DNA of 64,000 nucleotides. Origin: Thermodesulfobacteriota bacterium (lineage in GTDB: Bacteria; Desulfobacterota; QYQD01). Where the stretch lies: NCBI GenBank assembly GCA_031082315.1, contig JAVHLC010000002.1, positions 147,362 through 211,361 on the forward strand. Reading direction: 5' to 3'. How positions within the stretch are numbered: position 1 is the stretch's first letter; each line of letters starts with the position of its first letter. The notes under the pieces are model-generated. The model was not told the origin of the DNA. It did no database searches and was given only the letters and a program-made list of their open reading frames with translations. Below, piece by piece: positions 5,480 through 22,170 of the stretch. The translations under genes and the position numbers were made by a program.

Positions 5480-5488
5480 AGTCTATTC

Positions 5489-5866: not shown

Positions 5867-5877
5867 ATGGCGTCCAC

Positions 5878-6180
5878 CTATTCTTTCAGGATCATCTGTT
5901 TGACCCCGATTATTTCCCAAACCTTTTCCAAGTCGGGCGGTATATTTTTAATGGTCAGCCTGTGACCTTCGGTAAGAGATTTTTTGAAGGCTATCAGTAC
6001 CTGTATAGCCGCTGTATCCATCTGCACGACTTCCTGACAGTCTATAGTCAGATCCTGCTCCAGCACAAACCGATCCTTCAGGCACTCATATAAGTCGTCA
6101 AGATGGTGGACGCCTATCTCGCCACGCAACTTAATAATGCCTTCTGCCTGTTCCTGACATGGAGAATACGCATCAGCCAT
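5878..6180 (-). CDS. STAS-domain protein (anti-sigma-factor antagonist-like), first gene of the che operon
   Basis: 100 aa with a STAS-like pattern (…DLTIDCQEVVQMDTAAIQVLIAFKKSL…); no other domain. Confidence 0.55.
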   Translation of the reverse strand: MADAYSPCQEQAEGIIKLRGEIGVHHLDDLYECLKDRFVLEQDLTIDCQEVVQMDTAAIQVLIAFKKSLTEGHRLTIKNIPPDLEKVWEIIGVKQMILKE

Positions 6181-6626
6181 TGAATTCTCGCAGTCTTACA
6201 TTTCTAATGGTTCATTATGGCTTTTCGGCTAATGGGAGGACTTACTTAAACGAAAAGGGGGTTTTTTCTATCTCAGTTTACGGGGACGGACGTGGGGTAA
6301 AATAAAAGCTGTATTCTCGGTCATCCATATTCAAAGTCCGTATTTATTTCAGGCTCTTTTGTTATTAGCCATACGTGCCGATCTGTTAAACTAATGAGCG
6401 CCCCCACTTAGTCAGGTATAAGGTCTTCGAAGGGAAATACCCGGATCAAAAACTTGCTTGCAGGAATATTACAGGAGTAGCTATCCAATATTGAAGCTCC
6501 CCGCAGCAAGCTGCGGGAAATGCGCTCGCTATGCATGTTCAAGAAAAAACACAGAAGAGTGGGGGCACTATGAACGCTCTACACGAACGTACGCACATGG
6601 ACGGAAAAGGAGGAAAAGAGGAAAAA

Positions 6627-7046
6627 ATGGACATAACGATCTTGTTAGCCGATGATTCAAAGTTGGTTCAAGCCAAGTTCAGGTTGGCACTGGAAAAGGC
6701 AGGGTTTCAAGTTATCAGTGCCCTCGACGGCAAAGAAGGGCTGAGTATTGCCAGGGAAAAGAAGCCGGATCTCATTATCCTGGATGTGAATATGCCGGGG
6801 ATGGACGGTTGGCAGGTCCTTCGCTCTTTAAAGATTCATCCTGAATTGCGCAAGATACCCGTCATTATGGCTACGACTGCGGACAAGATTGCCGACATAG
6901 AACGGGGTTTTTCTCTGGGCGCAAAAGAATACGTCGTCAAGGACGAGCAACTCACCCGTTTGGTCGACAAGGTTGAAAAAGTGATGGCAAGCCAGAAACC
7001 TGAGACAAAAGTTGAAGGGAGCTGGGTAAAAAAAATGTTCTCGTAA
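6627..7046 (+). CDS. Stand-alone response regulator (receiver domain)
   Basis: MDITILLADDSKLV...DVNMPGMDGWQVL...K receiver signature. Start chosen at the ATG at 6627, preceded by GGAAAAGAGG; the listed ORF begins upstream at 6531. Confidence 0.7.
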   Translation: MDITILLADDSKLVQAKFRLALEKAGFQVISALDGKEGLSIAREKKPDLIILDVNMPGMDGWQVLRSLKIHPELRKIPVIMATTADKIADIERGFSLGAKEYVVKDEQLTRLVDKVEKVMASQKPETKVEGSWVKKMFS

Positions 7047-7702
7047 GACTTCGTCTGAAGAGTAACCAAGGGATTGCCTTAGAAACAAGCTCGTTTGATA
7101 CACGTCTAAAGGCCTGCAATCCCCCCACCAGTTTCGGCCGACGAGCTTGATCCCGGCTGGTTTCTGCATAGGAAAGGTAACGCCTTCTCGCCAAAACAGG
7201 ACAGCACATATTTTGTACCCTGCGAGGAGCCGCCTTCGAAGTGATCGAGACCGAGCCTTTTTTCATCGGCCGAAGACTAGAAAACACTATATCTCTATGT
7301 AACGCCCGTCCATACAAAAAAGCAATGCACCGGCTGTTTTTCGCACTATGGTCCGGGTGCAGCGTCAGCTCAGGTTCCGCTTTGGGGTGTCGCCGGAGAA
7401 AAGGCCCGCGGACAATCTGACAAATGTGCCTGAATCCAAACAGGTAGCATCATAAGGGGGTGTGGCATGGGAACAATTGTTCTCTTTTAGTGGAATTGTT
7501 TTTCCACTGGTCCAATCCCTTTCTCCCTCTGTCGCGGTAATCGTCTTAGCCATCATTTCCATTGACAACGTAATAACAACATGTTAGCGTCTTTCGGTAA
7601 TGTCCATGCCATTGGCACTCCATTTGCATTAGCTACGATTCATCGACGTCGTCAGCTTTACCGTGTAAAGCAGCATCCGCAGGCCGCCTCAGGAGTAGCA
7701 TT

Positions 7703-8872
7703 ATGGTCATGCCCAAGGACCGGACGAAATCAGGCATCAAGATACCCCGGCAAAAGGCACTCACATTCGCGGCGACTTTAATCTTTTCCCTTGTCCTGAT
7801 CCTATCGCTCCCACCCGCCGCTTCCGCCAGAGTGACGGGACCATGTGCCAACTGCCACACCATGCACAACAGTCAGGGGGGACTTCCGGTAGCGCCCGGA
7901 GGCCCCTACGGCCAACTACTGGTAGGCGACTGTGTGGGCTGCCATTCTGCCACCGACGGCGCGACCTGGAAAGATCCGGTAACCGGCGCTCCTATTGTCA
8001 ATAATACCGGCCAGCCCTCCTACGGCAGTCAAGGTCTCGCCGGCGGGAATTTCTATTGGGTAACGGTAAGCGACGGGAACGGGCACAACGTGTTTCCGGC
8101 TAATCCCGATGACGTCCTGATGAGCGCCCCCGGGGAAGCGTACGTAGGCGGCGGCTGTGGCACAAACGTTTGCCATAGCAATCTCCATCTTCCTTTTCAG
8201 ACTTCTTCCGAATTCGAGCCCATTCATGGCTACCTGAACGGGCGATCCGGCTGCACCGGCTGCCATATGGTATCCGGCTTCAACAAGTTCAGTCAAATCA
8301 AGAGTTGGCATCATACCAGTGTTACAGATGGGGTGGCGGATAGCGCTGCAGAGGGATGGTACCGGTTTCTGTCGGGCCATTTCAGCGGTTACCAGTACGG
8401 AGTCGCAGGCATAGAGGATGGCGACTGGCAATACACCAGCAGTGCCAGTGACCATAATGAGTACCTGGGTAAGCAGGTCGCCAGCGGGACTGGTGGTTTC
8501 GTCTCCATAGCAGGGAACACGGCCACGGCCTTCTGCTGTGGCTGTCACGGAAATTTCCACATCAAGAGACAGGGAGGGGCCTGGATACGACACCCCGTAG
8601 ATCGTAAGATACCGGCGTCCGGTGAATACGCCGACGCTTTCGGTGCCGCCACCGGCACCGCGACGTATGACCCCATCGTCCCCGTAGCCCGACCCACACT
8701 CGCCGCGGTCAGTGACACGGTAACCATAGGCACGGACATGGTCATGTGTCTCTCCTGCCATAGGGCCCACGCCAGCCCCTATCCTGACATGCTTCGATGG
8801 GACTACGCGACTATCCAGGCCGACGGTGGAGGAACCGGCGGCTGCTTCCAATGTCACACGAGCAAGAATTAG
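7703..8872 (+). CDS. OmcS-family multiheme c-type cytochrome (nanowire-type outer-surface cytochrome), paralog 1
   Basis: Signal peptide, then CANCHTMHNSQGG (OmcS N-terminus is ...CEGCHTMHNS...). Also CVGCH, CGTNVCH (CX4CH), CTGCH, CCGCH, CLSCHRAHAS (as in OmcS CLSCHRAHASGFDSM) and C-terminal CFQCHTSKN. Low heme density and a Gly/Ser/Thr-rich sequence. Confidence 0.75.
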   Translation: MVMPKDRTKSGIKIPRQKALTFAATLIFSLVLILSLPPAASARVTGPCANCHTMHNSQGGLPVAPGGPYGQLLVGDCVGCHSATDGATWKDPVTGAPIVNNTGQPSYGSQGLAGGNFYWVTVSDGNGHNVFPANPDDVLMSAPGEAYVGGGCGTNVCHSNLHLPFQTSSEFEPIHGYLNGRSGCTGCHMVSGFNKFSQIKSWHHTSVTDGVADSAAEGWYRFLSGHFSGYQYGVAGIEDGDWQYTSSASDHNEYLGKQVASGTGGFVSIAGNTATAFCCGCHGNFHIKRQGGAWIRHPVDRKIPASGEYADAFGAATGTATYDPIVPVARPTLAAVSDTVTIGTDMVMCLSCHRAHASPYPDMLRWDYATIQADGGGTGGCFQCHTSKN

Positions 8873-9196
8873 AATCTCGACAGGAGGCGTTAACAAAATC
8901 CAGGGGAACACCATGGGGGCTTTATTGACTACATTGAATAAGTGCGATAATGGAATCTTGAACAATGAAAAAGAGGGCCGGGCATGCCCCGACAGGCACG
9001 GTTTGATGCGCCTGGGACGCTTTTCTTCTATGTAAAGAATGGCCAGGCCAACTCGAATTCCACCCGCCGCAGGCAGACATCAAATGGTGCACTTACAATT
9101 TGAACATGCATAGCGAGCGAATACGATGCATTTTACCTTGCATACGGAGATTCCCCGTCCGCCCCAGGCGGACTGCGGGAAGCTTCAATTCACCTG

Positions 9197-10783
9197 TCAG
9201 TTGTGTTCGCGGGTCTTGAGGAAGACAATATCAGGCCAGTCTTCCATCACAAAACCAAGTCGCCACTCGCTGGGCGCCAGGTAGGCCAGGTGTCCTTCTG
9301 CATCATGCGCCATGTTGAGCAGGTGTTTCTTTTGAAACCCTTCCATTATTTTCTTGTCCCGGCAGCTGACCCATCGCGCCGTCGTGTATTCTACCGGTTC
9401 ATAGACCGCATCTACACCGTATTCGCCTTTGAGGCGTGCGACGGTTACGTCGAATTGTAGAATCCCCACTGCTCCCAGGATGTAGTCGTTTCCCTGAATC
9501 GGCCGAAAGACCTGAACCGCCCCCTCTTCCGCCAACTGCGTCAGGCCTTTTTGCAGTTGTTTGGCCTTGATGGGGTTCTTCAGGCGCACCCGCCGGAAGT
9601 GTTCCGGGGCAAAATTTGGAATGCCTGTGAACTTGAGGGGTTCCTTCTCGCTGAAGGTATCCCCGATCTTGATGGTTCCATGATTGTGGATGCCGATGAT
9701 GTCTCCGGGGTAAGCCTCTTCCACATTCATGCGGTCCTGAGCCATAAAAATAGTGGCATTGGCCAGGGCTACCTCTCTACCGGTCCGGTTGTGGCGGACT
9801 TTCATCCCGCGCGTGAATTTGCCTGAAACTATTCGGAGAAAGGCAATGCGGTCTCGATGCGCCGGGTCCATGTTTGCTTGTATCTTGAAAACGAACCCCG
9901 AAAATGGTTCTTCGTAGGGGTGGACTTCACGCGAGACGGCGGCCCTCGGCCCGGGGGCGGGCGCCATCTCTACGAAGGCGTCAAGCAGCTCCTTGACGCC
10001 AAAATTATTGATAGCGCTCCCAAAAAACACCGGGGTCTGGCTCCCTTTCAGATAGTGCCCGTGTTCAAAGGGGTTTGCCGCGCCCTCGATCAACTCCACG
10101 TCTCGGCGCAGGTCATCAGCCTGGGTGCCGAGGATTTCATCGAGCAGACTATCGGCCAGGTCGGTGACCGTTACCCCGTCCTGAATCCTAGTCTCTTGCC
10201 CCGGGGTAAAAAGACGCAGTTTCTTACGGTAGAAGTCATACACTCCTTTGAAGCGCTTGCCCCCTCCAATCGGCCAGGAGAGCGGCGTACACTCAATCTG
10301 GAGCTTGTCTTCGATGTCCGCAAGCACATCCAGGGGGGACATCCCGTCCCGGTCCAGCTTGTTGATGAAGGTTATGATCGGGGTATTACGCAGTCGGCAG
10401 ACCTCCATCAGTCTTTCCGTCTGCGGTTCCACGCCCTTTGCGCTGTCTATCACCATGAGGGCGCTATCCACCGCCGTGAGGACCCTGTACGTGTCTTCAG
10501 AAAAATCCTGGTGTCCGGGGGTGTCAAGCAGGTTTATCTCGAAATCACGGTAGTTGAATTTCATCACCGAAGTGGTAACTGATATGCCGCGCTCCCTCTC
10601 GATGGACATCCAGTCGCTGGTAGCATGACGGGCAGCCTTTCGGGCCTTCACGGCCCCGGCCAGCTGAATGGCCCCACCGAAGAGGAGCAATTTTTCCGTA
10701 AGGGTGGTTTTCCCGGCGTCAGGATGGCTGATGATGCCGAAAGTGCGCCGTCGGTCAACCTCTCTCTGATGTTCCTTGTTCAC
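9197..10783 (-). CDS. prfC: Peptide chain release factor 3 (RF3)
   Basis: 528 aa; GTPase motifs [30 protein letters not shown]; GTG start. Confidence 0.9.
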
Positions 10784-10785
10784 GC

Positions 10786-10890
10786 TATAAACCCCGAAAA
10801 AGATGGTTGTAAAACAAAAAAAATCGGGCCGTCAGGCCCGTTTGGTGTTTCGTAGTATACACAAAGATCAACGTTCAGTCAACGGCGGAT
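10786..10890 (-). promoter_or_regulatory. Repeated promoter-leader module upstream of prfC: -35 TTGACT / 17 bp / -10 TATACT, followed by hairpin GGGCCTGACGGCCC + U8 about 45 nt before the start codon
   Basis: Minus strand reads ...CCGTTGACTGAACGTTGATCTTTGTGTATACTACGAAACACCAAACGGGCCTGACGGCCCGATTTTTTTTGTTTTACAACCATCTTTT. Almost the same ~100 bp precedes the ABC-F gene at 13586-13690. Confidence 0.45.
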
Positions 10891-11143
10891 TGGGCCGCAT
10901 AGCGAAGACAAAGCTCGACCCGGTAGGTGATGGTGCGTTCCCGTCTCCGCCTTACATCTTATCTCAACATCGGGGGTGCCAAAGAGGATTGAACCTTTAA
11001 GCGATCAAAAACCGACCTTGAAACTGTTTTCTGTTGACAAGAAACCAGCTTCTAGCTAAGGTCGCGAAAGAACAAGATATTTGAAAGCTGAACGGCAGGC
11101 TCCTGGATGAAATTCCAAACCTGACCCCGGGAGGTGAAAAAGC

Positions 11144-11251
11144 ATGACCAAAGGCATGGACAGCAAAAAGAAAACCAAGAAGGAACCGGCCAAGACCCTG
11201 AAGGAAAAAAAGGCCGCGAAAAGAGCCAAGAAGGATGAGAAAAAACGCTAG
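11144..11251 (+). CDS. Possible small lysine-rich protein (35 aa; MTKGMDSKKKTKKEPAKTLKEKKAAKRAKKDEKKR)
   Basis: Strong RBS GGGAGGTG 6 nt upstream of the ATG; below the ORF-track size cutoff; its 3' end meets the convergent minus-strand exonuclease gene. Confidence 0.3.
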   Translation: MTKGMDSKKKTKKEPAKTLKEKKAAKRAKKDEKKR

Positions 11252-11877
11252 GAGCCTGCCGAATCTCCTGAATCCCTGATCTGCAGGAGTTTTTGAAAGA
11301 GTATCCGGCCCAGCCAGGCATCGGTGGCCGCATATCGAATTTGCGGCGGGGTCAGTGTGCTTCGTGCCCAATTGGAAGTCTGGGCTGCCTTGGAAATGCG
11401 TAGCCCCAGCAGAACGGCGGCAAGTCCCCGCAAGCCCTGATTTAGAAGACCCGCTTCTCTGGCCATCCTGTCGAGGTCCACGCACCGTGCCGGCTGGAAG
11501 GGGGCTAGTTCCTGCAATTCCCGGATATCATACGTCAGAGCGACGCCGGCCTTGGTGATCTCGGGCTGCGCCAAGAGGCGGCGGAGCGGTTTGGGCAGGC
11601 CGAGGTACTGCAACTGGAAAATGAAAACCTCCTGTTCGCCTGCGAGCTGCAGCAGTGACGGCGGGTAACTCTCTCCCTTTTTGAAGGCAGGCCTGGTTTC
11701 CGTGTCCAACCCTAGCAGGGTTTCCTTTGCCAAATGCCGGACCGCATCGGCCAGCTCCCCGGCAGTGCGGATGACGTGAACCGGTCCACGCCATTTGGTC
11801 ATAGGGCAGGCGTTGATTTCCTTTTTGTTCAGCCGCCGGGCAACTCCCCGGCCGTCGCCGGCCTCTTTTCCGGACAT
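11248..11877 (-). CDS. 3'-5' exonuclease domain protein (DEDDy / RNase D-like)
   Basis: LGLDTETRPAFKKGESYPPSLLQLAGEQEVFIFQ (Exo I DTE motif); C-terminal YAATDA (Exo III). An alternative start at 11802 (MTKWRG) is possible; 11877 has a GGGGAG RBS. Confidence 0.6.
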   Translation of the reverse strand: MSGKEAGDGRGVARRLNKKEINACPMTKWRGPVHVIRTAGELADAVRHLAKETLLGLDTETRPAFKKGESYPPSLLQLAGEQEVFIFQLQYLGLPKPLRRLLAQPEITKAGVALTYDIRELQELAPFQPARCVDLDRMAREAGLLNQGLRGLAAVLLGLRISKAAQTSNWARSTLTPPQIRYAATDAWLGRILFQKLLQIRDSGDSAGS

Positions 11878-11934
11878 TACTTATTCTCCCCGGTGATTGG
11901 ATATCTCTCCGATTTTGGAGGGAGGGCTAGAGAT

Positions 11935-13563
11935 TCAGCTCGCCATTGCCTGGCAGAGATCACCTCTGAGCCTCGTCACCTCCCCGTCTTCCAGATAATC
12001 GTCATAATTTGTCATCCGATCTATGATTCCGGTCGGCGTAATCTCGATGATCCGGTTCGCCACTGTGGCGACGGACTGGTGATCATGGGAAGCGAAAAGC
12101 ACCACCTCAGGGAAGGCGATGAGGCCGTTGTTGAGGGCGGTGATCGATTCAAGGTCCAGGTGATTGGTCGGCTCATCGAAGATGAGAGCGTTGGCGTCGG
12201 CCAGCATCATCCGCGCCAGCATACAGCGGACCCGCTCGCCGCCGGAAAGGACGCCGACCTGCTTGAGCGCCTCTTCGCCGGAGAAGAGCATCCGGCCGAG
12301 AAACCCGCGGACGAAGTTCTCGCCCTCGGTGATGGGCGCAAACTGGCGGAGCCATTCGATCAGGTTCAGGTCATGGGCGAAGTAGTCGCTGTTCTCCTTA
12401 GGAAAATAGGCGGTGGAGATGGTCTGGCCCCAGCGGAAGCTGCCGCTGTCCGGCGCCATTTCCCCGGTCAGGATCTGGAAAAGGGTCGTCCTGGCCAGGG
12501 TGCTGTCGCCGACAAAGGCGATTTTGTCCCCCTTGTTGACGGTGAGGGTTAAATTGTGCAAGGCCGTGACCCCGTCCACCTCCTTGCAGAGGTCCTTGAT
12601 CTCGAGGATGATGTCGCCGCAGGGCCGCCCGGGCTTGAACACCACATAGGGGTATTTCCGCGACGAGACCGGCATGTCCTCGATGGTGAGCTTTTCCAAC
12701 AGTTTTTTCCGCGAGGTGGCCTGCTTCGCCTTGGAGGCGTTGGAGCTGAAACGCTGGATGAACGCCTTGAGCTCGTCGGCCCGGGCCGTGGCCTTTTTGT
12801 TCTCATTCTGCCTCTGCTTGAGAATCAACTGGCTGGCCTCGTACCAGAAGTCGTAGTTCCCAACATACACCTGGATGCGGCCGAAGTCGATATCCGCCAT
12901 ATGGGTGCAGACCTGATTCAGGAAATGGCGGTCATGGGAAACGATAATGGTCGTGTTCTGAAATCGGAAAAGGAAATTCTCCAGCCAGGCGATGGATTGC
13001 TGGTCCAGATTGTTGGTCGGCTCGTCAAGCAGAAGGATGTCCGGGTTACCGAACAAGGCCTGCGCGAGCAGCACTCGCACTTTGTCGCCGCCATCGAGCT
13101 CCTTCATCTTCTTCTGGCGCAGATCCTCATGAATGCCGAGACCGTTGAGCAGCACCGCCACCTCGGATTCAATGTCATAGCCGTTCATCGCCGCGAATTC
13201 GCCCTCGACCTCCCCACAGCGAAGGCCGTCCGCTTCCGAGAGATCGGGCTTGGCGTAGAGCGCCTCCCGCTCGGCCATCAGTTGGTAGAGCCTTCGGTGC
13301 CCCATGATGACGGTATGGAAGACCGTTTCCTCGTCAAAGGCGAAATGGTCCTGCCGCAGCACCGCAATCCGCTCGCCGGCCCCGACCGTAATTTCTCCCT
13401 TGTCCGGTTCTATTTCGCCGGCGAGGATCTGGAGAAAGGTGGACTTGCCGGCGCCGTTGGCGCCGATCAGGCCGTAACAGTTGCCGGGGGTGAATTTGAT
13501 GTTGACGTCCTTAAAAATAACCCTCTTGCCGTAGGCGAGGGCGACATTCGATGCGTTGATCAT
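11935..13563 (-). CDS. ABC-F family ATPase (YbiT/EttA-like translation factor); two ABC cassettes, no transmembrane domain
   Basis: 542 aa; Walker A GANGAGKST and a second GxxGxGKS; signature LSGG motifs; Walker B LLLDEPTN. Confidence 0.85.
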   Translation of the reverse strand: MINASNVALAYGKRVIFKDVNIKFTPGNCYGLIGANGAGKSTFLQILAGEIEPDKGEITVGAGERIAVLRQDHFAFDEETVFHTVIMGHRRLYQLMAEREALYAKPDLSEADGLRCGEVEGEFAAMNGYDIESEVAVLLNGLGIHEDLRQKKMKELDGGDKVRVLLAQALFGNPDILLLDEPTNNLDQQSIAWLENFLFRFQNTTIIVSHDRHFLNQVCTHMADIDFGRIQVYVGNYDFWYEASQLILKQRQNENKKATARADELKAFIQRFSSNASKAKQATSRKKLLEKLTIEDMPVSSRKYPYVVFKPGRPCGDIILEIKDLCKEVDGVTALHNLTLTVNKGDKIAFVGDSTLARTTLFQILTGEMAPDSGSFRWGQTISTAYFPKENSDYFAHDLNLIEWLRQFAPITEGENFVRGFLGRMLFSGEEALKQVGVLSGGERVRCMLARMMLADANALIFDEPTNHLDLESITALNNGLIAFPEVVLFASHDHQSVATVANRIIEITPTGIIDRMTNYDDYLEDGEVTRLRGDLCQAMAS

Positions 13564-13585
13564 TCTTGCCTTCCTAAAACTGATG

Positions 13586-13690
13586 AATTCCCAAAAAGAT
13601 GGTTGTAAAACAAAAAAAATCGGGCCGTCAGGCCCGTTTGGTGTTTCGTATTGTACACAAAAAACAGCGTTCAGTCAACGGCGGATTGTG
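13586..13690 (-). promoter_or_regulatory. Second copy of the promoter-leader module (-35 TTGACT / 17 bp / -10 TACAAT; hairpin GGGCCTGACGGCCC + U8) upstream of the ABC-F gene
   Basis: Near-identical to 10786-10890; lies 25-125 nt upstream of the ABC-F start codon. Confidence 0.45.
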
Positions 13691-13881
13691 GATTGCTCAT
13701 GTCCGGGACCTTTCCCGCATGCCTCACCGGTGCAACCCTCTTCATAACCTTTCTCCATCCGTGCAACCTAAAGGTCGTCCTGAACGTGCTTTCCATGTAA
13801 GAAAGCTTTGAACATGCATAGCGAGCGCATTCCCCGCTGCTCGCGGCGGGGAATATCGCTGCGCGGTGTGGGGAAAAAGGG

Positions 13882-14229
13882 CTAAGCCTGCTGAGGCGCT
13901 GCGCCCTCTTCCTTCTTCTTTTTCTTCTTGGGCTTGGCTTCGGGGGGCGGCGCGGCGACTTTCTTTGCCTTGGAGGTCTCTTCCTTGGGCCTTGCCAAGC
14001 GCTCCGCCTTGATCGTGGCCAACTCCGCCGTTCGCTTCTCCGTGGCGTCGATCGCCCGCAAACGGGCCTGCGATTCCTTGATCTTTGCCTTCAATCCCTT
14101 GACGAGCACATCGCGCGCGATCTTTTTCTTGTCCGCCCCCTTCTCCGCAAGAAGCGCCAGACGCTTCTGCAACTTCACTTCCCATTCGGCCTTCTGTTTC
14201 AGCCGCGTTTCCCTGCGTTCGGATGCCAT
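13882..14229 (-). CDS. Hypothetical lysine-rich coiled-coil protein (115 aa; C-terminal AKPKKKKKKEEG tail)
   Basis: Coding-like composition; highly basic with KAK repeats; no recognisable domain. Confidence 0.45.
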   Translation of the reverse strand: MASERRETRLKQKAEWEVKLQKRLALLAEKGADKKKIARDVLVKGLKAKIKESQARLRAIDATEKRTAELATIKAERLARPKEETSKAKKVAAPPPEAKPKKKKKKEEGAAPQQA

Positions 14230-14613
14230 TGGTTTCTCCTTTTTGGTTTTTCCGTGTCGGGTATCTTCACTGTTTCCTCATCATCGTGCCCGGAGACGGA
14301 AGTTACCTCTTACCAGAATTTCCGCCGAAAATCCAGTTAATTTGGCCGGCCGTCATAAGGAGCCAAACACCCAATCTCTTTGACCTTGTACCGGGATTGA
14401 AGTTCGGGGGTCAGTGGGCTACAGTCAATGCTGCATTGAGCATATATCTCGCTGATTTTTTGATAGAACCGCCTTTCAGAAGCCCGTATCTCGCGGTATT
14501 ATCTTTCCTGTAACAACCTCTTCTGCGGATCACAGCAGACGAGAAATGCCTGTTGTTCTAAAAGTGATAATTTTCAAGAATGTCCCGGTGTCCCTCCCGA
14601 GTGAGTCTATCTA

Positions 14614-14802
14614 TTAAAGGGTTGCGGTCTTTTTTTCTGCGCGCATACGATCCCTGATCTTCTTGGCCCTATCAGGCATGGCATAATAGAAAAACTCCAT
14701 TTGCGCCTCAAGCCACTTGATCTTTTGAAGAGCCGGCCGCTTCCGGTACTCTTTTATCTGCTCTATCGTCCTATAATATAACAGTGGCGTTTTATTCATC
14801 AC
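14614..14802 (-). CDS. Small protein (62 aa) overlapping the upstream nucleotidyltransferase gene by 11 nt; possible partner of a toxin-antitoxin-like pair
   Basis: MMNKTPLLYYRTIEQIKEYRKRPALQKIKWLEAQMEFFYYAMPDRAKKIRDRMRAEKK; operonic overlap with the NTase gene. Confidence 0.35.
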   Translation of the reverse strand: MMNKTPLLYYRTIEQIKEYRKRPALQKIKWLEAQMEFFYYAMPDRAKKIRDRMRAEKKTATL

Positions 14803-15301
14803 CCCACTCCTTTTCTATCTTTCTAAGATAATAGACATCGGCAATATCTTGAGGTCTGCCGACCTTCTTCTTCATCTCAATAAGCCGTTTTATAGGGACA
14901 AGTGGAATCCTCACATTTCCAGCCTTGATATTTTTCCGTTCTCCATAAACCTTATCAAAGTCAAACGGTTCCTCTACAAATACATCCAATAGGAAATATG
15001 GATTCTGCGGGTCATAAACGCTGAAAACCTTCATCCCCTTTTCACGAACCCACTTGTCCCTCATCTCCTTACTGCACAGATCTTCAAGTTTCACCGGAAT
15101 TTTGGGCCTGAAGCCTAACTCCTTCATGACCTCCACAAACTTTTCAAGATTATGCCGCTCCAGATGAACAACGATATCTATATCGCCTGTGGCTCGTTCA
15201 ATCCCATAAAGATTGACAGCCACTCCACCGGCGACGAGATAGCGAACCTTCTTATTGTTCAGGGTTGAAAACAGGTTAAGGATGTTTAATTTATCGCTCA
15301 T
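14792..15301 (-). CDS. Pol-beta-superfamily nucleotidyltransferase-fold protein (MNT-like)
   Basis: GG...G-x9-TGDIDIVV (GS...DxD NTase signature); 169 aa; preceded by a 41-nt leader identical to the one before the AlbA_2 gene. Confidence 0.6.
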   Translation of the reverse strand: MSDKLNILNLFSTLNNKKVRYLVAGGVAVNLYGIERATGDIDIVVHLERHNLEKFVEVMKELGFRPKIPVKLEDLCSKEMRDKWVREKGMKVFSVYDPQNPYFLLDVFVEEPFDFDKVYGERKNIKAGNVRIPLVPIKRLIEMKKKVGRPQDIADVYYLRKIEKEWGDE

Positions 15302-15395
15302 ATCGTCTTAAAGTCCATACCTTCTACGAACGTTTCAATACCGGTCATTGCCTCCAGGATATTTTTCAGGTAGTTCCAGTTTAGGAAATGTCATT

Positions 15396-16766
15396 TCATT
15401 TTTTCACCACTTCCCAATAGCCACCCTTGTCCGGGCCGATGCGCTTGAGAACTCCTTTTTTCCTAAGTCTGGTTATATGGTATTTTACTCCGTCTTCGGT
15501 TATCCCTATAACCGTTGCAAGTTCTTTTTGAGTAATATCTGATTTCTTAGTAATAGCTTCTATGATTTTCTGGGTAGTTTTCTGGGTAGTTTTCTGGGTA
15601 ATATCTTCTACCCCTTTTTCACCCAACTTTTCAAATCCTTTCTTGCCCTCAAAATAACTCCTACGCTTAAAAGTAGTAATAAACTTTGTCCCTACCTCGC
15701 TGAATTCAGTATCAGGTTCTTTTGAGAGCATAAGCTTGATACCCCTGCCCCATTTCTCTATGAAATGAACACGATGAAGCATCTCTGCAATCAGCTCGTT
15801 TCTTCTTTCTGAGACCATCTTTGTCCTGATGGTCTCTATGGTCAGCCCACCATAAAGCAGCCCCGGGCTCCTTATTTCAACACGATCTTTAAAAACAGCG
15901 ATGTTAACAGAATCAAACTCCCGGTAATCCCTATGGCAGAAGGCATTGATTATTGCTTCTCTGAAAGCCGCCTTGTCAATTTCAGGCACATCTACCCTTC
16001 TTAACCCTTCCAGCTTCATGCCGATATGAATATTTTTCAGGATGTATCCTTCGGCTTTTTCGATCAGGTAGAAGAGATCTCCTTCAAAATCCTGCATATC
16101 AATGGTAAACGATGTGTCTGTTGTGCCGAAAACAGCGCATCTGAGACGGGCATTGGGGAAAAATGCCTGCGGTTTTTTGGCAAATAAGATTACGGCTGCA
16201 TTGAGGGGCTTACCGTCAGACATGAGCTTTAATTTTTCAAGCGCATTGCGTACAGTGTCATATTTCAGCACTGAACCTTTCAAAAAAGATTTGACTTTAG
16301 TTGCGCTTATGTCTGTGATCTTTGCTTCTTTGCAAATTTCGGTATCCCATCTTAATTTATCCTTATTCTTTCCGAGAATCAGCCCTTCGAGTTCTTTAGC
16401 GCTTAATTGCCGGTCTTCATCCGCCACCCTTATATATGCCCTGCCATATGCAAAATAGGGAATATCGTTACCCTTAAACCGGACTTTAATACATGCCTTG
16501 CCGTCTATTTCGATACGGTTTATGTGAGGATAGATTTTGGGTTCAATATGGTCTGCAATGGATTTTGATACATCACGGATTGTTTTTTCCGTTACGTTCT
16601 GACCGGCTACAATGCCATTGTTTTTAATTCCAAAAAATAATTCTCCGTGTTGATGTTTATTGAGAATTGCCGCTATAGATATGATCGCCTCTTTAATCTC
16701 AGAAGTAGATTTTTTAAGTTCCAATGTTTCAGATTCAATAAATTTCATATTAAGCTTACGACTCAT
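15396..16766 (-). CDS. Schlafen/AlbA_2-type divergent AAA ATPase with C-terminal HATPase-like and wHTH regions (RecG-C-terminal-like 'putative transcriptional regulator' family)
   Basis: 456 aa; N-terminal region resembling an AlbA_2 fold (…ELKKSTSEIKEAIISIAAILNKHQHGELFFGIKNNGIVAGQ…). Internal tandem repeat TQKTTQKTTQK from three 12-bp DNA repeats at about 15570-15605. C-terminal HTH (ITQKELATVIGITEDGVKYHITRLRKKG). Confidence 0.55.
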   Translation of the reverse strand: MSRKLNMKFIESETLELKKSTSEIKEAIISIAAILNKHQHGELFFGIKNNGIVAGQNVTEKTIRDVSKSIADHIEPKIYPHINRIEIDGKACIKVRFKGNDIPYFAYGRAYIRVADEDRQLSAKELEGLILGKNKDKLRWDTEICKEAKITDISATKVKSFLKGSVLKYDTVRNALEKLKLMSDGKPLNAAVILFAKKPQAFFPNARLRCAVFGTTDTSFTIDMQDFEGDLFYLIEKAEGYILKNIHIGMKLEGLRRVDVPEIDKAAFREAIINAFCHRDYREFDSVNIAVFKDRVEIRSPGLLYGGLTIETIRTKMVSERRNELIAEMLHRVHFIEKWGRGIKLMLSKEPDTEFSEVGTKFITTFKRRSYFEGKKGFEKLGEKGVEDITQKTTQKTTQKIIEAITKKSDITQKELATVIGITEDGVKYHITRLRKKGVLKRIGPDKGGYWEVVKK

Positions 16767-16852
16767 ATCGTCTTAAAGTCCATACCTTCTACGAACGTTT
16801 CAATAGAAGAATTTTATGATCATCTCCCCTCTTCCCGCCTGTCGATGGAGCT

Positions 16853-17713
16853 TCAATTACTTAAGGACGGCTCGGCGCACCCTCCGTCTAGGTCGTAGTT
16901 CGCAATTGCCAATTCAGTCGTGATTTGGCGCTTGCAAACTACTGCTGCCAGCACGCTGTGCCGACGCAGCACGGCATAGTTCCATTCCGCAGCGGAATAG
17001 AGCCTCTTGATGCTGGGCGAGTCCGCATTTGACACGAGGACCAAAGCCCCCCGCCTGGAGGCTTCGCCAACAGCAGCCGCAAGGCGTTCCTGGTCTTCCC
17101 AGCAAAAAAGGCGTTCATTGTACTTAATGAAATTGTTCTGGTTGTGCTGGACCGTGTATGGAGGATCTACGTAAACGAAGTCACCTGCACCTGCTTCATA
17201 CAGCACTTCTTCAAAGTCACCACAGACTAAATGCGCAGACCGTAACGCATTCGCGACCGTTGAGAAATCATCATCGGGGAATGTGACAGTATCCTTGGTT
17301 CCTTTTGGCACGTTGAAAACGCCTTGCCTATTCACACGATAGAGGCCATTGAAACAAGTCCTGTTTAAGTAGATAAATCTGGCCGCACGAGAAGCAGCAG
17401 TTCTCGGCTTGCTGGTGCGGATCCGGTAGTAGTGTTCCTTACTGTGACGCTGCCGATGCCATAGAAGTCTCTCCCATACCAATCGCCAGTCGTCCCGTAT
17501 TGCGTAGTATGTCTCAATAAGGTCGTGATTCGCATCGCTGAGATAAGCATGACTAGGGCATAGGCCGAAAAAGACAGCCCCACTACCCAAAAACGGCTCG
17601 AAATACCGGTTGTATGACTTAGGAAAAACCGTACGGTGGTCAGACACAAGCCACCTCTTGCCTCCCGCCCATTTTAAGAATGGTTTCACACGCTGCCGGG
17701 TGTCCACAGTCAT
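16853..17713 (-). CDS. DNA N6-adenine methyltransferase, Dam/D12 class
   Basis: KWAGGKRWL (SAM-binding motif I), EPFLGSGAV, DPPY (catalytic motif IV); 286 aa. Confidence 0.85.
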   Translation of the reverse strand: MTVDTRQRVKPFLKWAGGKRWLVSDHRTVFPKSYNRYFEPFLGSGAVFFGLCPSHAYLSDANHDLIETYYAIRDDWRLVWERLLWHRQRHSKEHYYRIRTSKPRTAASRAARFIYLNRTCFNGLYRVNRQGVFNVPKGTKDTVTFPDDDFSTVANALRSAHLVCGDFEEVLYEAGAGDFVYVDPPYTVQHNQNNFIKYNERLFCWEDQERLAAAVGEASRRGALVLVSNADSPSIKRLYSAAEWNYAVLRRHSVLAAVVCKRQITTELAIANYDLDGGCAEPSLSN

Positions 17714-20028
17714 TCTTCGGCGCCTCCTTTAATGGTCGCCAGTCTCTGAGTGAATTCGCCGTAAATGTAATCAAGGTACTCGAAGTCCTCGCTCTTGTAG
17801 TGACGGCTCTCCGTAGGGTGGGCCGGTATTCTTCGCAACTCGTTTACTCTTTCCATCCACCGCACGTTTTTTGAGTAGCCCTTTTCGTTAGGATCGGGGA
17901 TATCAAAAACTGGCTTAAAAAGGGGCCAATGGAGCTTGTTTTCTACTATTTTCTTGTACTCGATAAAATCCAGATAGTTCTCCAAGGGCAGTCGGTCTTC
18001 GTCTTCATCGTCGAGCGACTTCTCGTAGGCACGAGTCTTGATGTTCTTGTCCAGAACACCTTTGTGCCAGTAAGCATCCTTCTCGGTTCCATACTGCTCT
18101 TTGAACTTATCAAATATGTATTTTTGAACAAGGACATTCAATTCCTTCAGTCTGTGGTCCGCAGTGTCGATCAGCTCAGTTGATTGCTCTTGTTCCCATT
18201 CTCCCATGCCTTCAGGCTCGAAATCCGAGAACTGCTGTCTTACTATCCTGCAGAGACGGAAGTAATATTCACGTGGACCACCTGATCCAAATTGAACCTT
18301 GAACTCCTGTTCCATAGCAGTGGGGGATGCTCCCTGCAGCCATCTCAGGATCGGATCAAGATATTCCTCGATCTCTAAGACAAGCTCCTCTGGCGACAGC
18401 TCTCTTGCCATGAGCCCTTTGTTTGGCTCCATATAGGAAATGAGAGACGCAAGAAGTTGCAGGTACGCCTGAAGGGCGACATTGGTGCAGAGGAAGCCTT
18501 GCCGCCCCATCTCCCATTGACTGTGGTTGCTGGACCGTATTAGGCTAAAGTACTGGTTTAGGACACTGCGGGCGTGATCCAGTGTCTCGCTGTCGGAGAC
18601 ACCAGAGAGAGGTCCTGGCGCATACTCCTTTTGTTTAAGAATCGCTCGCCCAAGTAAACCAGAGCGCCGCAGGCCATCCTTGAGCGCCGGCACTGTTAAG
18701 CATGTTTTTTCGGTTGCAGTAATCCCTTGCTGGGTCACTCGACCATATAGAGGCTCACCGATATCGGCATTAAGAATGCCGATCAGTCTCGCACTGATTG
18801 CGCCAACACGCTCCACGGGGACATCCGAACCCCACTTGAGTTCTCCCTCGAGATCGTCAAGAAGTGTTTTTGGCACAGACTTCTGCTCGTGGTTGATCGT
18901 AACGAAGAGGTTCGCCTCTTGTGCCGGGCTGAGGCCCTCAAAGGCTATAACTACGATGTTCTGATTCAGATATTTCTCATCAAGCGGGGCATACCCATAC
19001 AATCTATGCTGGCCGTCAATGATCCACACTGACCGGTAACGGTCCGGCAAATATAGGTACCCATATGTAACCTCGGCCGAATCATCTTTTGCCACAGTAT
19101 CGAAACGCACCTTCCGTGTAAAATTGACAAGTATGTTCGTCGGGAAGAAACCTCCGCCAAGAAGATACTTGCCGATCTGGTGCATTCGAGACCGATTCAC
19201 AAGTCGTTGGTATGTTGGCGCACCATCAGGATCATTCAGTGATCTGTGGTTTACGAAGGCTATCTTGAGAAGCTGCTTCGGAGTGGTAACAAAACAGAAG
19301 AACTTGTGACCGCCAAGCGTTCCACGGATTGCCGGAAGCTTCTGGTTCTGGAGTTCTGGGATTTTCTGGTCTTTGAGAAACTCGGCGAGGAACTGAAACC
19401 GTGCAGCTTTTCTGAGATGATCGGCAATCTGTAAGTAATACCGCAACTCACGTTCTGTTATAATACGGATGTTTTCACCGGCGGCCCGATCCTTATCCTG
19501 CTTCGACCAGATTATGTTCTGTGTTACGAAAAGCCAGATAATCTTTGGCTTGAAGTCAGCGCCATAGTGTTTTTTGATGGAGTCTGCCAAGTATCCCTTA
19601 AGATTGGCAAACTCCTCGATGTCCTTCTGAAGGCTTCTCCGTTTAAGGCTCTCGGATGCTTTGCATTCGGCAACAATTACTGTTTCTTCATCTTTGGCGA
19701 AAACATCAATTTGTTTTCGTATCGGATCAGCGCCCTTCCGGTCGATCCTGACTGTGAAGTTCCGGCCCGCATTAAGTTCATGATACCCCATAAGGTAAAG
19801 AAGCAGCCAAAGCCGATTCTCTAACTGCGTATCAAATGGTCGTGCTCGCTTGAGGCAAGTTTTACGCTTAAGTTCTCTGTCCAGCACCCATCCGTCTGCC
19901 AAGAAACCCTCGACCTCAGCTTTTGAGACAGAGATCTGGTCAAACAGGCTGCGTCTCTTTGCTGCTTCTCTGCCAATGCGAGATGAATCCGTCAACAGTG
20001 ACTCGAGTATTACTGCATTCTCGGTCAT
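17710..20028 (-). CDS. 772-aa fusion protein: N-terminal PD-(D/E)xK-like nuclease motif + DGQHR (DndB-like / ParB-fold) domain + C-terminal uncharacterised region; candidate restriction/defense component
   Basis: IDVFAKDEETVIVAECKASE fits a D...ExK nuclease core; SVWIIDGQHRLYGYAP is the DGQHR signature; the stop overlaps the Dam MTase start by 4 nt; AT-rich low-GC sequence lies upstream (20030-20330). Confidence 0.65.
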   Translation of the reverse strand: MTENAVILESLLTDSSRIGREAAKRRSLFDQISVSKAEVEGFLADGWVLDRELKRKTCLKRARPFDTQLENRLWLLLYLMGYHELNAGRNFTVRIDRKGADPIRKQIDVFAKDEETVIVAECKASESLKRRSLQKDIEEFANLKGYLADSIKKHYGADFKPKIIWLFVTQNIIWSKQDKDRAAGENIRIITERELRYYLQIADHLRKAARFQFLAEFLKDQKIPELQNQKLPAIRGTLGGHKFFCFVTTPKQLLKIAFVNHRSLNDPDGAPTYQRLVNRSRMHQIGKYLLGGGFFPTNILVNFTRKVRFDTVAKDDSAEVTYGYLYLPDRYRSVWIIDGQHRLYGYAPLDEKYLNQNIVVIAFEGLSPAQEANLFVTINHEQKSVPKTLLDDLEGELKWGSDVPVERVGAISARLIGILNADIGEPLYGRVTQQGITATEKTCLTVPALKDGLRRSGLLGRAILKQKEYAPGPLSGVSDSETLDHARSVLNQYFSLIRSSNHSQWEMGRQGFLCTNVALQAYLQLLASLISYMEPNKGLMARELSPEELVLEIEEYLDPILRWLQGASPTAMEQEFKVQFGSGGPREYYFRLCRIVRQQFSDFEPEGMGEWEQEQSTELIDTADHRLKELNVLVQKYIFDKFKEQYGTEKDAYWHKGVLDKNIKTRAYEKSLDDEDEDRLPLENYLDFIEYKKIVENKLHWPLFKPVFDIPDPNEKGYSKNVRWMERVNELRRIPAHPTESRHYKSEDFEYLDYIYGEFTQRLATIKGGAEE

Positions 20029-20389
20029 ATTCGTTACCCCTCAGTACGGCGGCGAATCTTATATAGATTCCACTTTTATCATCAAAACTCGTATATCTTA
20101 GTGATCATATTATAATTTAGATAGTGAACGTCTATAAAATTATAACTTATTATTTTACTGATAGCTCAAGCCCCTTTCTCTCTGGCGCCCTGCTCTTTGG
20201 CCATCTATTTCCCTGGTTTAATTACCTGAACGGCTCGTTTACTATAAATCCGGCAGAAATCAGCCAGCCTGTTTATTAGGATTAAATGAACCTGGCAAGG
20301 AATATCACGAAAAGAAATGGATGGTCAAGGAGATTTGCTGCGGCAACTATTTGAAGGCAAGGCGTGGAGAAGGCGGCTGCCTGGAGACG

Positions 20390-21169
20390 TCAGTATCTGA
20401 AGTGTTTGATCTGCTCACCCTTTTCTCCAATCTCCATCATCGCTTCAATCCCAATCTGGAGGTGCATTTCGGACCACTGCGCAGTCACGCGTTCGTCCAA
20501 TTCCTCTGTCTTGACCCCCTCAGGTGTAAGCGGAAGGTCAGATACAAGGAGGAGTGCGCCCCGGGCGATCTCGTTATAGTGGCCCACAATGAAGAACGTC
20601 GCTGTTTCCATATCAATGGCTATACAGGTCATTTGCTTAAGCCGATCCTGGAAACGCTGGTCGTGTTCCCACAGGCGACGATTTGTCGTGTAAACTACCC
20701 CGGTCCGGTATTCATGCCCGTGCTCCAAAATCTTTTCAGAGACGAACTTATGTAGCTTGAAGGACGGAAGCGCAGGCACTTCAGGCGGGAAATAGTCGTT
20801 GCTGGTGCCTTCGCCCCTTATGGCCGCGATTGGGAGGATGAAGTTGCCAATCTCGGTCGACTTCTTCAACCCTCCGCATTTGCCGAGAAACAACGCTCCC
20901 TTGGGGTGGCGGGCGCTGAGCAAATCCGTTATGGTCGCAACGTTGGCCGTTCCGATGCCGAAGTGGACGATCGTCAGACCGCTGCTGTTGGTCGCAGCCT
21001 GCATCGGCTTGTTGTCCCCGTATATGTCGCATTTGAACTTTTCGGCAAAGTTCGTGAGGTAGTACCGGAAGTTGGTCAGAAGGATATAGTCGCCGAAAAG
21101 ATCGAGGGGCATTCCGGTATAACGGGGGAGCCAGCACTTGGCGATCTCAAGTCGCTCAAGCATGGGCAA
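20390..21169 (-). CDS. Nucleoside phosphorylase family protein (PNP/UDP phosphorylase-type fold; possibly AMP nucleosidase-like)
   Basis: 259 aa; GIGTANVATITDLLSARHPKGALFLGKCGGL and IAIDMETATFF resemble PNP_UDP_1 family cores. Confidence 0.55.
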   Translation of the reverse strand: MPMLERLEIAKCWLPRYTGMPLDLFGDYILLTNFRYYLTNFAEKFKCDIYGDNKPMQAATNSSGLTIVHFGIGTANVATITDLLSARHPKGALFLGKCGGLKKSTEIGNFILPIAAIRGEGTSNDYFPPEVPALPSFKLHKFVSEKILEHGHEYRTGVVYTTNRRLWEHDQRFQDRLKQMTCIAIDMETATFFIVGHYNEIARGALLLVSDLPLTPEGVKTEELDERVTAQWSEMHLQIGIEAMMEIGEKGEQIKHFRY

Positions 21170-21369
21170 GTGCCTCCTTAACGCTCACACACCAAGGGGA
21201 TTCCATGATTGTTTATCGTAGCAGATAAAGAATCTTTTGTCCCGCCATTTTCGCCCATCGGCCTCTGGCTCAAAGGGAAGGTGGCGTCCTCCGTCTTCGG
21301 CCGACCTGGCGGCGTCTGCCCCCGGGGCGGGAGCGATAGGATGGAATGACTTACTCCGCGTAGATTTAT

Positions 21370-22170
21370 TTAATTTATATAGCTGTGCAGGCCGGAGAGA
21401 AGGAAATTGACGCCAAAATACGTAAAGAGCACTGATACAAAGCCGCCAATGGAGAGCAGGGCGATCTTTTTGCCATGCCACCCGCGCAGACGGACATGAA
21501 GAATGATCGCATAGACGAACCACGTAATCAGAGACCAGGTTTCTTTAGGGTCCCATTGCCAGTAGGCCCCCCAGGCCGAGTGTGCCCAGATGGAACCGGT
21601 TGCGATGCCGGCGGTAAGAAACAGAAAACCAAAGACAATCACCCGATAGTTAAGGGTATCCAGGTCTTTTTTGTCATCGGATCTTTTAAACAGGTATGCT
21701 ATGCTCAGGCCACAGGAAACAGCGAATGCGCCATAACCAATAAAGCAGGTGATGACATGGGCAATGAGCCAGTTGCTCTGCAAGGCCGGGACAAGCGGTT
21801 CAATGCGGCTTGAAATAGTCGGTGAAAACGAGGCGTAGGCCAGACCAAGGAAGGCAAAAGGTACGGTGAACACGCCTGCGTGGGCGAGTTTATACTTATA
21901 TTCAGCAATAAAATGGATCAAAATTATTGCCCAGGCAAAGAAGACCAGGGACTCATAAAAATTGGCAAATGGGGCATGGCCGATCCCGAGGTTGTGGGAT
22001 TCAACCCAGCGTAAAATAATAGCAGCGGTATGTGCAACAAAGGTGCCTATAGTGACAACCGAAGCGATCCTCTGGCCGATTTTTGTCTTAAAGATCAGGG
22101 CGCTCAGATAAAATATCACTGCCGCAAGATAGCTGAACGTTACGACAGCGAGAATTTTCGAACTCAGCAT
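21370..22170 (-). CDS. ccsA: Cytochrome c biogenesis protein CcsA (System II heme lyase subunit)
   Basis: WGAYWQWDPKETWSLITWFVYA is the tryptophan-rich WWD domain; multi-pass membrane protein; immediately downstream of resB. Confidence 0.8.
   Translation of the reverse strand: MLSSKILAVVTFSYLAAVIFYLSALIFKTKIGQRIASVVTIGTFVAHTAAIILRWVESHNLGIGHAPFANFYESLVFFAWAIILIHFIAEYKYKLAHAGVFTVPFAFLGLAYASFSPTISSRIEPLVPALQSNWLIAHVITCFIGYGAFAVSCGLSIAYLFKRSDDKKDLDTLNYRVIVFGFLFLTAGIATGSIWAHSAWGAYWQWDPKETWSLITWFVYAIILHVRLRGWHGKKIALLSIGGFVSVLFTYFGVNFLLSGLHSYIN

Follow-up and report, generated by a model that had tools for sequence, protein, structure and literature searches.

Several described systems bear on the locus reported here. 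Among the Type II restriction-modification (R-M) systems, the DpnII system recognizes GATC and has as its modification enzyme DpnM, a relative of the Dam N6-adenine DNA methyltransferases (MTases). The GmrSD, BrxU, and SspE enzymes combine a nuclease with a nucleotide-binding domain of the ParB/Srx fold, and in the GmrSD-type enzymes this domain (DUF262) gates an HNH nuclease (PMC4619093). Two further proteins, DndB and DpdB, contain the related DGQHR domain and stand on the modification side of their respective systems: DndB represses and limits phosphorothioation (PMC4507180), whereas the ATPase DpdB assists DpdA in inserting preQ0 (PMC12839542). A DndB-like ParB-fold protein has been reported to bind ATP and GTP (bioRxiv 10.1101/2025.10.10.680097). 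In a domain survey by Makarova et al. (2013; PMC3632139), DndB was described as a combination of ParB and HEPN domains, and ParB/DGQHR domains were connected with R-M systems and stated to be "often fused" to domains of the PD-(D/E)xK, HNH, and HEPN types; a second survey listed a "ParB (Saro_3948)" fusion under the Swt1-like HEPN domains (Anantharaman et al. 2013, PMC3710099). Here we describe a pair of overlapping minus-strand genes in a 64,000-nucleotide (nt) stretch of a Thermodesulfobacteriota bacterium (contig JAVHLC010000002.1 of assembly GCA_031082315.1, positions 147,362 to 211,361; hereafter the window, in whose coordinates positions are given except where another locus is named). 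The first codes for a large DGQHR protein of 772 amino acids (aa) and putative restriction subunit (positions 17710 to 20028; R in the shorthand used below) and the second for a 286-aa MTase of the Dam/DpnM family (positions 16853 to 17713; M). An original prediction, made from the sequence of the window, had taken the two for an R-M-like module, and each test that we ran supported this reading. We consider it probable that R and M constitute a self-contained, horizontally mobile two-gene R-M cassette, with the large protein as its restriction subunit.

The large protein displays, from its N to its C terminus, a restriction endonuclease (REase)-fold domain, a DGQHR/ParB-fold domain, a helical linker, and a HEPN domain. 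The N-terminal domain (residues ~60 to 215; positions 19384 to 19851, minus strand) has the alpha-beta-beta-beta-alpha-beta core and the D...(D/E)xK residues of the PD-(D/E)xK fold, and thus the nuclease fold expected at this end of the protein is present. Its catalytic candidates are E70, D108, and E121-C-K123, of which the last group is encoded by the codons at positions 19660 to 19668, and the stretch IDVFAKDEETVIVAECK corresponds to residues 107 to 123. The central domain (residues 233 to 529; positions 18442 to 19332, minus strand) is a DndB/DpdB-like DGQHR domain of the ParB/Srx fold, with the signature WIIDGQHRLYGY at residues 335 to 346 and the DGQHR pentapeptide itself at residues 338 to 342 (positions 19003 to 19017). 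Both motifs had been picked out in the original prediction and proved to be genuine family features: in an alignment of 21 homologues, D108 is kept in at least 90% of the sequences and D113, E121, C122, K123, and D338 to R342 are invariant.

Profile searches place the large protein in the DGQHR family (TIGR03187; 145.4 bits against a cut-off of 58.85, E = 2.8e-42), and the Pfam DndB model matches all 30 diverse members of the family that were compared. It is nevertheless no canonical DndB or DpdB, as had been anticipated, since its scores fall far under both equivalog cut-offs: the DndB equivalog TIGR03233 gives 26.5 bits against 328, with an alignment limited to residues 229 to 377, and the DpdB equivalog NF041060 gives 69.7 bits against 300. 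Its matches in PADLOC-DB v2.0, namely, DpdB (E = 3.3e-22), DndB, CARF_PDDEXK, and the ZorD nuclease, are likewise at the level of domains. The REase families in Pfam and NCBIfam, including DpnII/MboI, showed no match to the 772-aa protein, and DUF262 and DUF1524/HNH matched neither it nor the 30 family members. A sequence search of the PDB recovered nothing meaningful, and a Foldseek search of the PDB with the full model recovered weak matches to the nuclease domain and no solved structure of the same architecture. When the isolated terminal pieces were searched against Pfam at E <= 10, the N-terminal piece gave weak nuclease matches. The nuclease subunit is therefore best read as belonging to no described REase family and as a restriction subunit of a new kind. 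The DGQHR domain had been proposed to sense DNA modifications, a role that finds no support, as the published data on DndB-like proteins and DpdB point instead to the binding or hydrolysis of nucleoside triphosphates (NTPs) (10.1101/2025.10.10.680097; PMC12839542); by analogy, the domain of the large protein may bind or hydrolyze NTPs.

The remainder of the protein, approximately 350 aa that had been thought to contain no recognized domain, includes a HEPN-fold domain of the Swt1/AbiF clade close to the C terminus (residues ~600 to 768; positions 17725 to 18231, minus strand). Its recovery required a fold search, as Pfam was blank on the C-terminal piece. The domain is a four-helix up-down bundle with the Rx4-6H motif that defines the HEPN superfamily, here in the form R732-R733-x3-H737 (Rx4H; positions 17818 to 17835), and N729, R732-R733, and H737 are invariant in the family. 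The structures recovered with it were the HEPN domains of Roquin and sacsin, HI0074, HEPN toxins, AbiA, Csm6, LsoA, and Cas13b, and its nearest structural relatives are the Abi proteins AbiF and AbiA and the HEPN toxins. At the level of sequence, the Pfam HEPN_Swt1 model (PF18731; gathering score of 27.5 bits) does not match the window protein, while it does match 6 of the 30 members at E <= 0.01 (best E = 1.3e-5), with the homologue on plasmid pNL1 (see below) scoring 20.1 bits (E = 8e-4). The PADLOC model PDC-M34B aligns to the same region (approximately residues 610 to 750) in 14 of the 30 members and gives no match to the window protein at E <= 0.01. This alignment links the HEPN domain to defense islands, and we found no paper that mentions PDC-M34. 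With the C-terminal 189 aa as the query, only fragments of the same family were returned, indicating that no other architectures share the HEPN domain at the sequence level.

The identity of the smaller protein as a Dam-family enzyme, as originally assigned, is clear from its matches to TIGR00571 (234.8 bits; cut-off, 114.85) and Pfam D12 (E = 2e-49), alongside the PADLOC MTase_II model (E = 3.4e-89). Its best solved relative is DpnM (PDB code 2dpm; 177.6 bits), followed by Escherichia coli Dam (118 bits). The protein contains the KWAGGK motif, the S-adenosylmethionine-binding FxGxG motif (EPFLGSGAVFF), and the catalytic DPPY motif (VDPPY). Among the residues equivalent to the GATC contacts in the Dam-DNA structures, K9, N120, L122, R124, and P134 are kept and R137 and Y138 are not. 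Judged by these residues and its relatives, the MTase probably targets GATC.

The strongest evidence for a functional connection between the two proteins comes from gene neighborhoods. We compared 80 loci drawn from one genome per species, in which the large protein is 39 to 75% identical to that in the window, and a further 80 metagenome loci from the distant part of the family; 106 of these loci had at least 1 kb on both flanks and were informative. An N6-adenine MTase is adjacent to the large gene in 97 of the 106 (~92%), across many phyla. In 87 of these it is a Dam-type MTase on the same strand, in five a same-strand divergent D12 MTase, in three a same-strand MT-A70 MTase, and in two (L045 and L162) an MTase found on inspection. 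The remaining loci either have a radical-SAM module in place of the MTase (four loci; see below), show no visible partner (about four; L064, L065, L107, and L144), or have a disrupted large gene (one; L056). In most of the species-set loci, the gene directly downstream on the same strand encodes a close relative of the MTase in the window, and where this relative is missing, its place is taken by a divergent D12 MTase of 375 to 390 aa (L053, L054, and L069) or by an MT-A70 MTase (L075, L077, and L079, and, on the opposite strand, L067). In the distant set, a Dam-family MTase is found on the same strand either downstream or directly upstream, such that the order is R-M or M-R. The MTase family has been swapped between clades with the partnership retained.

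The two reading frames are also physically interlocked. In the window, the stop codon of the large gene (TGA, positions 17712 to 17710) and the start codon of the MTase (ATG, positions 17713 to 17711) share an ATGA at positions 17710 to 17713 of the minus strand, within ...GAAGAATGACTG..., an overlap of 4 nt that agrees with that originally noted. Across 65 related loci, the interval between the R stop and the M start is most often -8 nt (15 loci) or -4 nt (11 loci). When all open reading frames (ORFs) within 3 kb of the large gene were clustered over the 160 loci, the MTase emerged as the sole conserved neighbor (118 loci); the next cluster is an artifact, namely, an ORF antisense to the MTase gene and inside it, and every remaining cluster is confined to 11 loci or fewer. 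Of the latter, none of those that we identified is a dnd, dpd, ssp, BREX, or DISARM gene. More specifically, no dndA, -C, -D, or -E gene occurs among the neighbors in the window or the conserved neighbors at the 160 loci, a view limited to the window and the fetched loci, and no conserved cluster corresponds to dpdA/TGT-like genes or dpdC. The absence of such neighbors and the missed equivalog cut-offs bear out the earlier contention that the pair does not match these systems. Adjacent, co-oriented genes for an MTase and an REase-fold protein that are inherited together, as observed at 97 of the 106 loci, are the hallmark of Type II R-M. Taken together, the obligate pairing, the occurrence in either order, the translational coupling, the exchange of MTases, and the spread over phyla form the signature of a mobile R-M cassette.

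Some neighborhoods show additional features. The distant locus L162 (positions 3912 to 9043) presents a compound R-M-like arrangement: the large gene is directly preceded by that for a D12 MTase and followed by an N6_N4 MTase fragment, and a T5orf172/DUF4357 protein is encoded as well. A stand-alone DGQHR/DndB-like protein of 371 aa is found in L054 (positions 6006 to 7121, minus strand) and near the large gene in eight other loci, some of them with the divergent D12 MTase.

The family defined by the large protein is extensive. A word-indexed search recovered 3,649 homologues, the best 120 of which are full length (~775 aa) and 63 to 84% identical and come from widely differing phyla. An exhaustive search of representatives at 50% identity recovered 2,244 clusters at E <= 1e-3 and 510 at E <= 1e-30, with the best 150 clusters being mostly full length (745 to 790 aa) at 28 to 54% identity. 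In a set of species-representative genomes, the protein has matches in at least 487 places. Cultured carriers include Stenotrophomonas daejeonensis JCM 16244, Luteimonas aquatica RIB1-20, Lysobacter cavernae KCTC 42875, Gordonibacter sp. 28C, Polaromonas sp. A23, and Bosea sp. BH3, and Bradyrhizobium semiaridum WSM 1704 is an example among those with an MT-A70 or divergent D12 partner. Homologues at 60 to 84% identity reach the Thermodesulfobacteriota, Acidobacteriota, Verrucomicrobiota, Planctomycetota, Ignavibacteria, Coriobacteriia, and Proteobacteria, and the source annotations name them only as "DGQHR domain-containing protein" or "DndB." From this high identity across phyla, together with a G+C content at the window locus that differs from that of the flanking genes, the R-M pair is best read as horizontally mobile. 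Even among 30 members at 21 to 32% identity, the consensus retains QIDVFA-DDE...ECK, IIDGQHRLYGY, and LN-IR-xxxx-HP. The catalytic-type motifs of all three domains are therefore kept across both the 21- and the 30-member alignments and appear to be under selection, which argues for active enzymes rather than decayed domains.

In a distinct set of loci, the large protein has a different companion. Full-length homologues with ~32% identity are encoded on the Novosphingobium aromaticivorans plasmid pNL1 (L081) and on a plasmid of Agrobacterium sp. S7/73 (L082), where no MTase is present and the neighboring module consists of a small DGQHR protein (335 aa), a radical-SAM protein (~540 aa), and a GHKL/HSP90-like ATPase (~510 aa) (positions 7215 to 11355 in L081 and 7353 to 11576 in L082). 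Among the 80 metagenome loci, about nine have this module as well (L110, L111, L114, L117, L118, L137, L155, L158, and L161). We regard it as a candidate for an undescribed DNA modification module that replaces the methylase. The occurrence of the large protein beside either an MTase or the radical-SAM module suggests that it is portable and can be combined with more than one kind of candidate modification module. Moreover, since the radical-SAM loci possess a small DpdB-like DGQHR protein of their own, the large protein is unlikely to be a modification helper and more likely represents the restriction side. The pNL1 homologue (769 aa; 32% identity over residues 45 to 756), which has the radical-SAM partner rather than an MTase, is probably the Saro_3948 protein of the HEPN survey.

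Set against the systems introduced above, the pair resembles the DpnII-type Type II systems in being a compact cassette centered on an N6-adenine MTase of the DpnM/Dam family and in the predicted protection by methylation from a PD-(D/E)xK nuclease. It differs in that its R is a 772-aa three-domain protein from outside the DpnII/MboI family that is probably NTP dependent; its GATC specificity is a prediction. Such NTP dependence, which the ParB-fold domain suggests, would place the pair outside classical Type II. With GmrSD, BrxU, and SspE it has in common the fusion of a DNA nuclease to a nucleotide-binding domain that has the ParB/Srx fold and a DGQ(Q/H)R motif, a combination deployed in defense against invaders (PMC4619093). 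In contrast to their C-terminal HNH domain, however, the nuclease here is an N-terminal PD-(D/E)xK domain, a HEPN domain is added, DUF262 and DUF1524 are not matched, and there is a cognate MTase, which implies that cleavage is blocked by modification rather than dependent on it. With DndB and DpdB, the large protein shares the DGQHR domain alone (TIGR03187/PF14072); it is twice as long and has an added nuclease domain and an adenine MTase as its partner. Component B of PDC-M34 is a stand-alone protein of ~185 to 192 aa, whereas its counterpart here is the C-terminal domain of a three-domain protein. We found no publication that names, defines, or tests the pair of R and the MTase, and PADLOC-DB v2.0 and NCBIfam hold no model for it, in agreement with its predicted absence from the named systems, with REBASE and newer defense catalogues lying outside this comparison. 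The description of the module as undescribed thus stands insofar as it is unnamed and uncharacterized and requires qualification in that the domain fusions were noted generically in 2013 (PMC3632139, PMC3710099); those surveys list the fusion only and define no system, MTase partnership, or function.

On the basis of its fold, residue conservation, and gene context, we infer that the 772-aa protein is a restriction subunit and propose the following scheme, in which the activities are predictions. The MTase would methylate adenine at N6 in the host DNA, probably at GATC, and the N-terminal PD-(D/E)xK domain would cut DNA without this mark. The DGQHR/ParB-fold domain would bind DNA and an NTP and, in the manner of a switch or clamp, license the nuclease or bring it into position; the analogy is to the DndB-like proteins that bind ATP and GTP, to DpdB as an ATPase, and to the DUF262 domain of GmrSD and BrxU. 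The HEPN domain could either mediate dimerization or provide an RNase that acts as back-up or second effector, a role predicted for HEPN-REase fusions (PMC3710099, PMC3632139). Finally, the R-first order with its ATGA overlap would couple translation of the MTase to that of the nuclease, and since the R stop overlaps the M start, the nuclease would not be translated unless the MTase gene is translated alongside it.

Several observations sit uneasily with this proposal. The AlphaFold2 model of the ParB core, the putative seat of NTP binding, is of low confidence (pLDDT < 50 near residues 258 to 299, 335 to 349, and 376 to 397). No target recognition element was identified in the R protein, whose specificity would have to match that of MTase partners from three families. 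The ~4% of loci without an adjacent MTase (L064, L065, L107, and L144) would need one encoded elsewhere, since an unprotected active restriction enzyme would be lethal. Lastly, GATC is not avoided in the window (observed/expected ratio, 0.85), which thus lacks the footprint that GATC restriction might leave in a genome, although this is a weak test if the element was acquired recently. As a separate observation on the composition of the window, CTAG is strongly depleted (24 occurrences against 96 expected; ratio, 0.25), and the tetramers CGCG (0.64) and GTAC (0.73) are moderately low.

A more ambitious version of the R-M proposal, which we put forward tentatively, is that the REase-DGQHR-HEPN protein represents a new class of NTP-gated restriction enzyme, in which a ParB-type switch drives both a DNase and a HEPN RNase. 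As such, it would be a portable reader and effector of differing self-marks, these being N6-methyladenine (deposited by Dam, MT-A70, or divergent D12 enzymes) or, in the radical-SAM loci, an undescribed DNA modification made by the radical-SAM protein.

The HEPN domain invites a different interpretation, wherein the pair is mainly an abortive infection (Abi) or addiction module. In this case the HEPN RNase, alone or together with the DNase, would be a suicide toxin that is triggered by infection or loss of the cassette, and the MTase would be its antidote or sensor. The structural proximity of the domain to AbiF, AbiA, and the HEPN toxins, its homology to the stand-alone component of the PADLOC candidate system (PDC-M34B), the suicide roles proposed for ParB-nuclease-HEPN fusions in the 2013 surveys (PMC3632139), and the presence of Abi- and toxin-antitoxin (TA)-like genes near the pair in the window are all consistent with it. 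Those neighbors, however, are not conserved, and the conserved pairing with three families of N6-adenine MTases in either order is what would be expected of classical modification-based discrimination. We therefore regard an Abi or addiction module as unlikely in its own right, but such a role is compatible with an R-M cassette and is in part a sub-case of it.

The affinities of the DGQHR domain suggest another possibility, namely, that the large protein serves modification in an accessory or regulatory capacity by loading, targeting, or restraining the MTase, with its nuclease fold only binding or nicking DNA. DndB and DpdB, both modification-side proteins, have this domain in common (PMC4507180, PMC12839542), and associations of ParB-fold proteins with MTases are common in phages (PMC4738411; 10.1101/2025.10.10.680097). 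Yet the PD-(D/E)xK residues and the HEPN Rx4H motif, which a regulator would not need, are kept down to ~25% identity, Dam-family MTases work alone, the DpdB-like slot in the radical-SAM loci is already filled by a separate small DGQHR protein, and none of 50,697 phage records contains a full-length homologue. An accessory role is thus decidedly improbable. Least credible of all is that the large protein, like GmrSD, BrxU, and SspE, is a nuclease of the Type IV kind that attacks foreign modified DNA, with the MTase unrelated or merely tuning it. In its favor are the shared fusion logic of a ParB-fold NTPase and a nuclease (PMC4619093) and the resemblance of DGQHR to the DGQQR of GmrS. Against it, Type IV enzymes lack a cognate MTase, whereas one is adjacent at ~92% of the loci here, often with overlapping codons; an N6-methyladenine-dependent nuclease beside an active Dam-type MTase would be suicidal; and DUF262 and DUF1524/HNH gave no match.

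If the R-M cassette is confirmed, a widespread and phylogenetically broad family of restriction enzymes, comprising hundreds of clusters at 50% identity, would join the R-M repertoire. Current pipelines label the large protein as a "DGQHR domain-containing protein" or mislabel it as "DndB," and the MTase beside it may then pass for an orphan or Type II methylase. Some of the "orphan Dam" signal seen in environmental genomes may stem from this system. Confirmation would also show a nucleotide-binding fold of the ParB/DndB type controlling a PD-(D/E)xK nuclease and would offer a tractable case of a HEPN RNase domain inside a restriction subunit, on which the decade-old prediction of RNase back-up effectors in R-M could be tested. 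The pairing of the large protein with the radical-SAM module, for its part, points to a possible new DNA modification.

In the window, the pair lies within a run of five minus-strand ORFs, all of which we found at the positions originally given: the large gene and the MTase are followed by genes for a SLFN/AlbA_2 protein (456 aa; positions 15396 to 16766), a nucleotidyltransferase (NTase)-like protein (169 aa; positions 14792 to 15301), and a small protein without a family match (62 aa; positions 14614 to 14802). The adjacency and common strand of the proposed five-gene block hold, but it is not a single unit, as G+C content divides it into the R-M pair (0.49 to 0.52) and the three remaining genes (0.40 to 0.45). 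The flanks have a housekeeping character and a G+C content of 0.51 to 0.56: one of them contains prfC and the gene for an ABC-F ATPase, and the other contains a nucleoside-phosphorylase-like gene, ccsA/resB, and genes for multiheme cytochromes. Upstream of the large gene lies the AT-rich region pointed out earlier (positions 20029 to 20330, minus strand), with a G+C content of 0.381 against ~0.51 to 0.56 in the flanks. It contains a promoter-like TTTATA-18-TATAAT at positions 20138 to 20109, a consensus match for which the evidence is positional, as a scan of the region returned nine sites against 8.5 expected by chance, and a GAGGGG Shine-Dalgarno sequence lies 8 nt ahead of the ATG of the large gene. 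The boundaries of the island bear no integration signature, as neither a tRNA gene nor convincing repeats, direct or inverted, were found there, and an Rfam scan of positions 10000 to 21500 gave no match at E <= 0.01.

The SLFN/AlbA_2, NTase-like, and 62-aa genes were considered as parts of the system and rejected, as none of them forms a conserved neighbor cluster; a SLFN-like gene occurs near the large gene in one of the first 80 related loci, at a distance of 4 kb. These companions, which the original prediction had grouped with the pair in one island, are therefore incidental and lie outside the conserved module. The 456-aa protein combines SLFN/AlbA_2, HATPase_c_4 ("RecG C-terminal"-like), and winged helix-turn-helix domains and matches in part PADLOC models of N-terminal domains from SIR2-associated short pAgo partners (Aga_SIR2-PNTD1-PNTD2, E = 2.4e-14); its gene has the lowest G+C content in the block (0.403). 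Of the supposed NTase pair, the 169-aa protein is indeed NTase-like, if weakly, with matches to AbiEii (E = 5.7e-4), NTP_transf_5, and Lnu that are all under the cut-off, while its 62-aa partner matched no family in the profile searches. The two ORFs overlap by 11 nt, and they may form a small TA-like pair with an unusual partner.

Two kinds of repeated leader element were observed among the neighboring genes. An identical 42-nt sequence, TATTGAAACGTTCGTAGAAGGTATGGACTTTAAGACGATATG, comprising a 39-nt leader and a start codon, occurs on the minus strand at positions 15299 to 15340 and 16764 to 16805, preceding the unrelated adjacent genes for the NTase-like and SLFN/AlbA_2 proteins, respectively, with exactly two copies in the window against none expected. 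It holds a mini-ORF of six codons (ATG GAC TTT AAG ACG ATA TGA) whose stop overlaps the main ATG and may represent a shared regulatory or translational coupling leader or a cassette junction. Further along, near-identical elements of ~100 nt are located at positions ~10797 to 10895 and ~13590 to 13690, just upstream on the minus strand of prfC (release factor 3; positions 9197 to 10783, minus strand) and the ABC-F ATPase gene (positions 11935 to 13563, minus strand). Rfam returned no match for this element, which on the minus strand contains a TTGACT -35-like box. A hairpin that resembles a terminator and has a U-run, GGGCCTGACGGCCCGATTTTTTTT, lies ~25 nt ahead of each start codon, and the element is thus a candidate for a shared attenuation leader of two translation factor genes.

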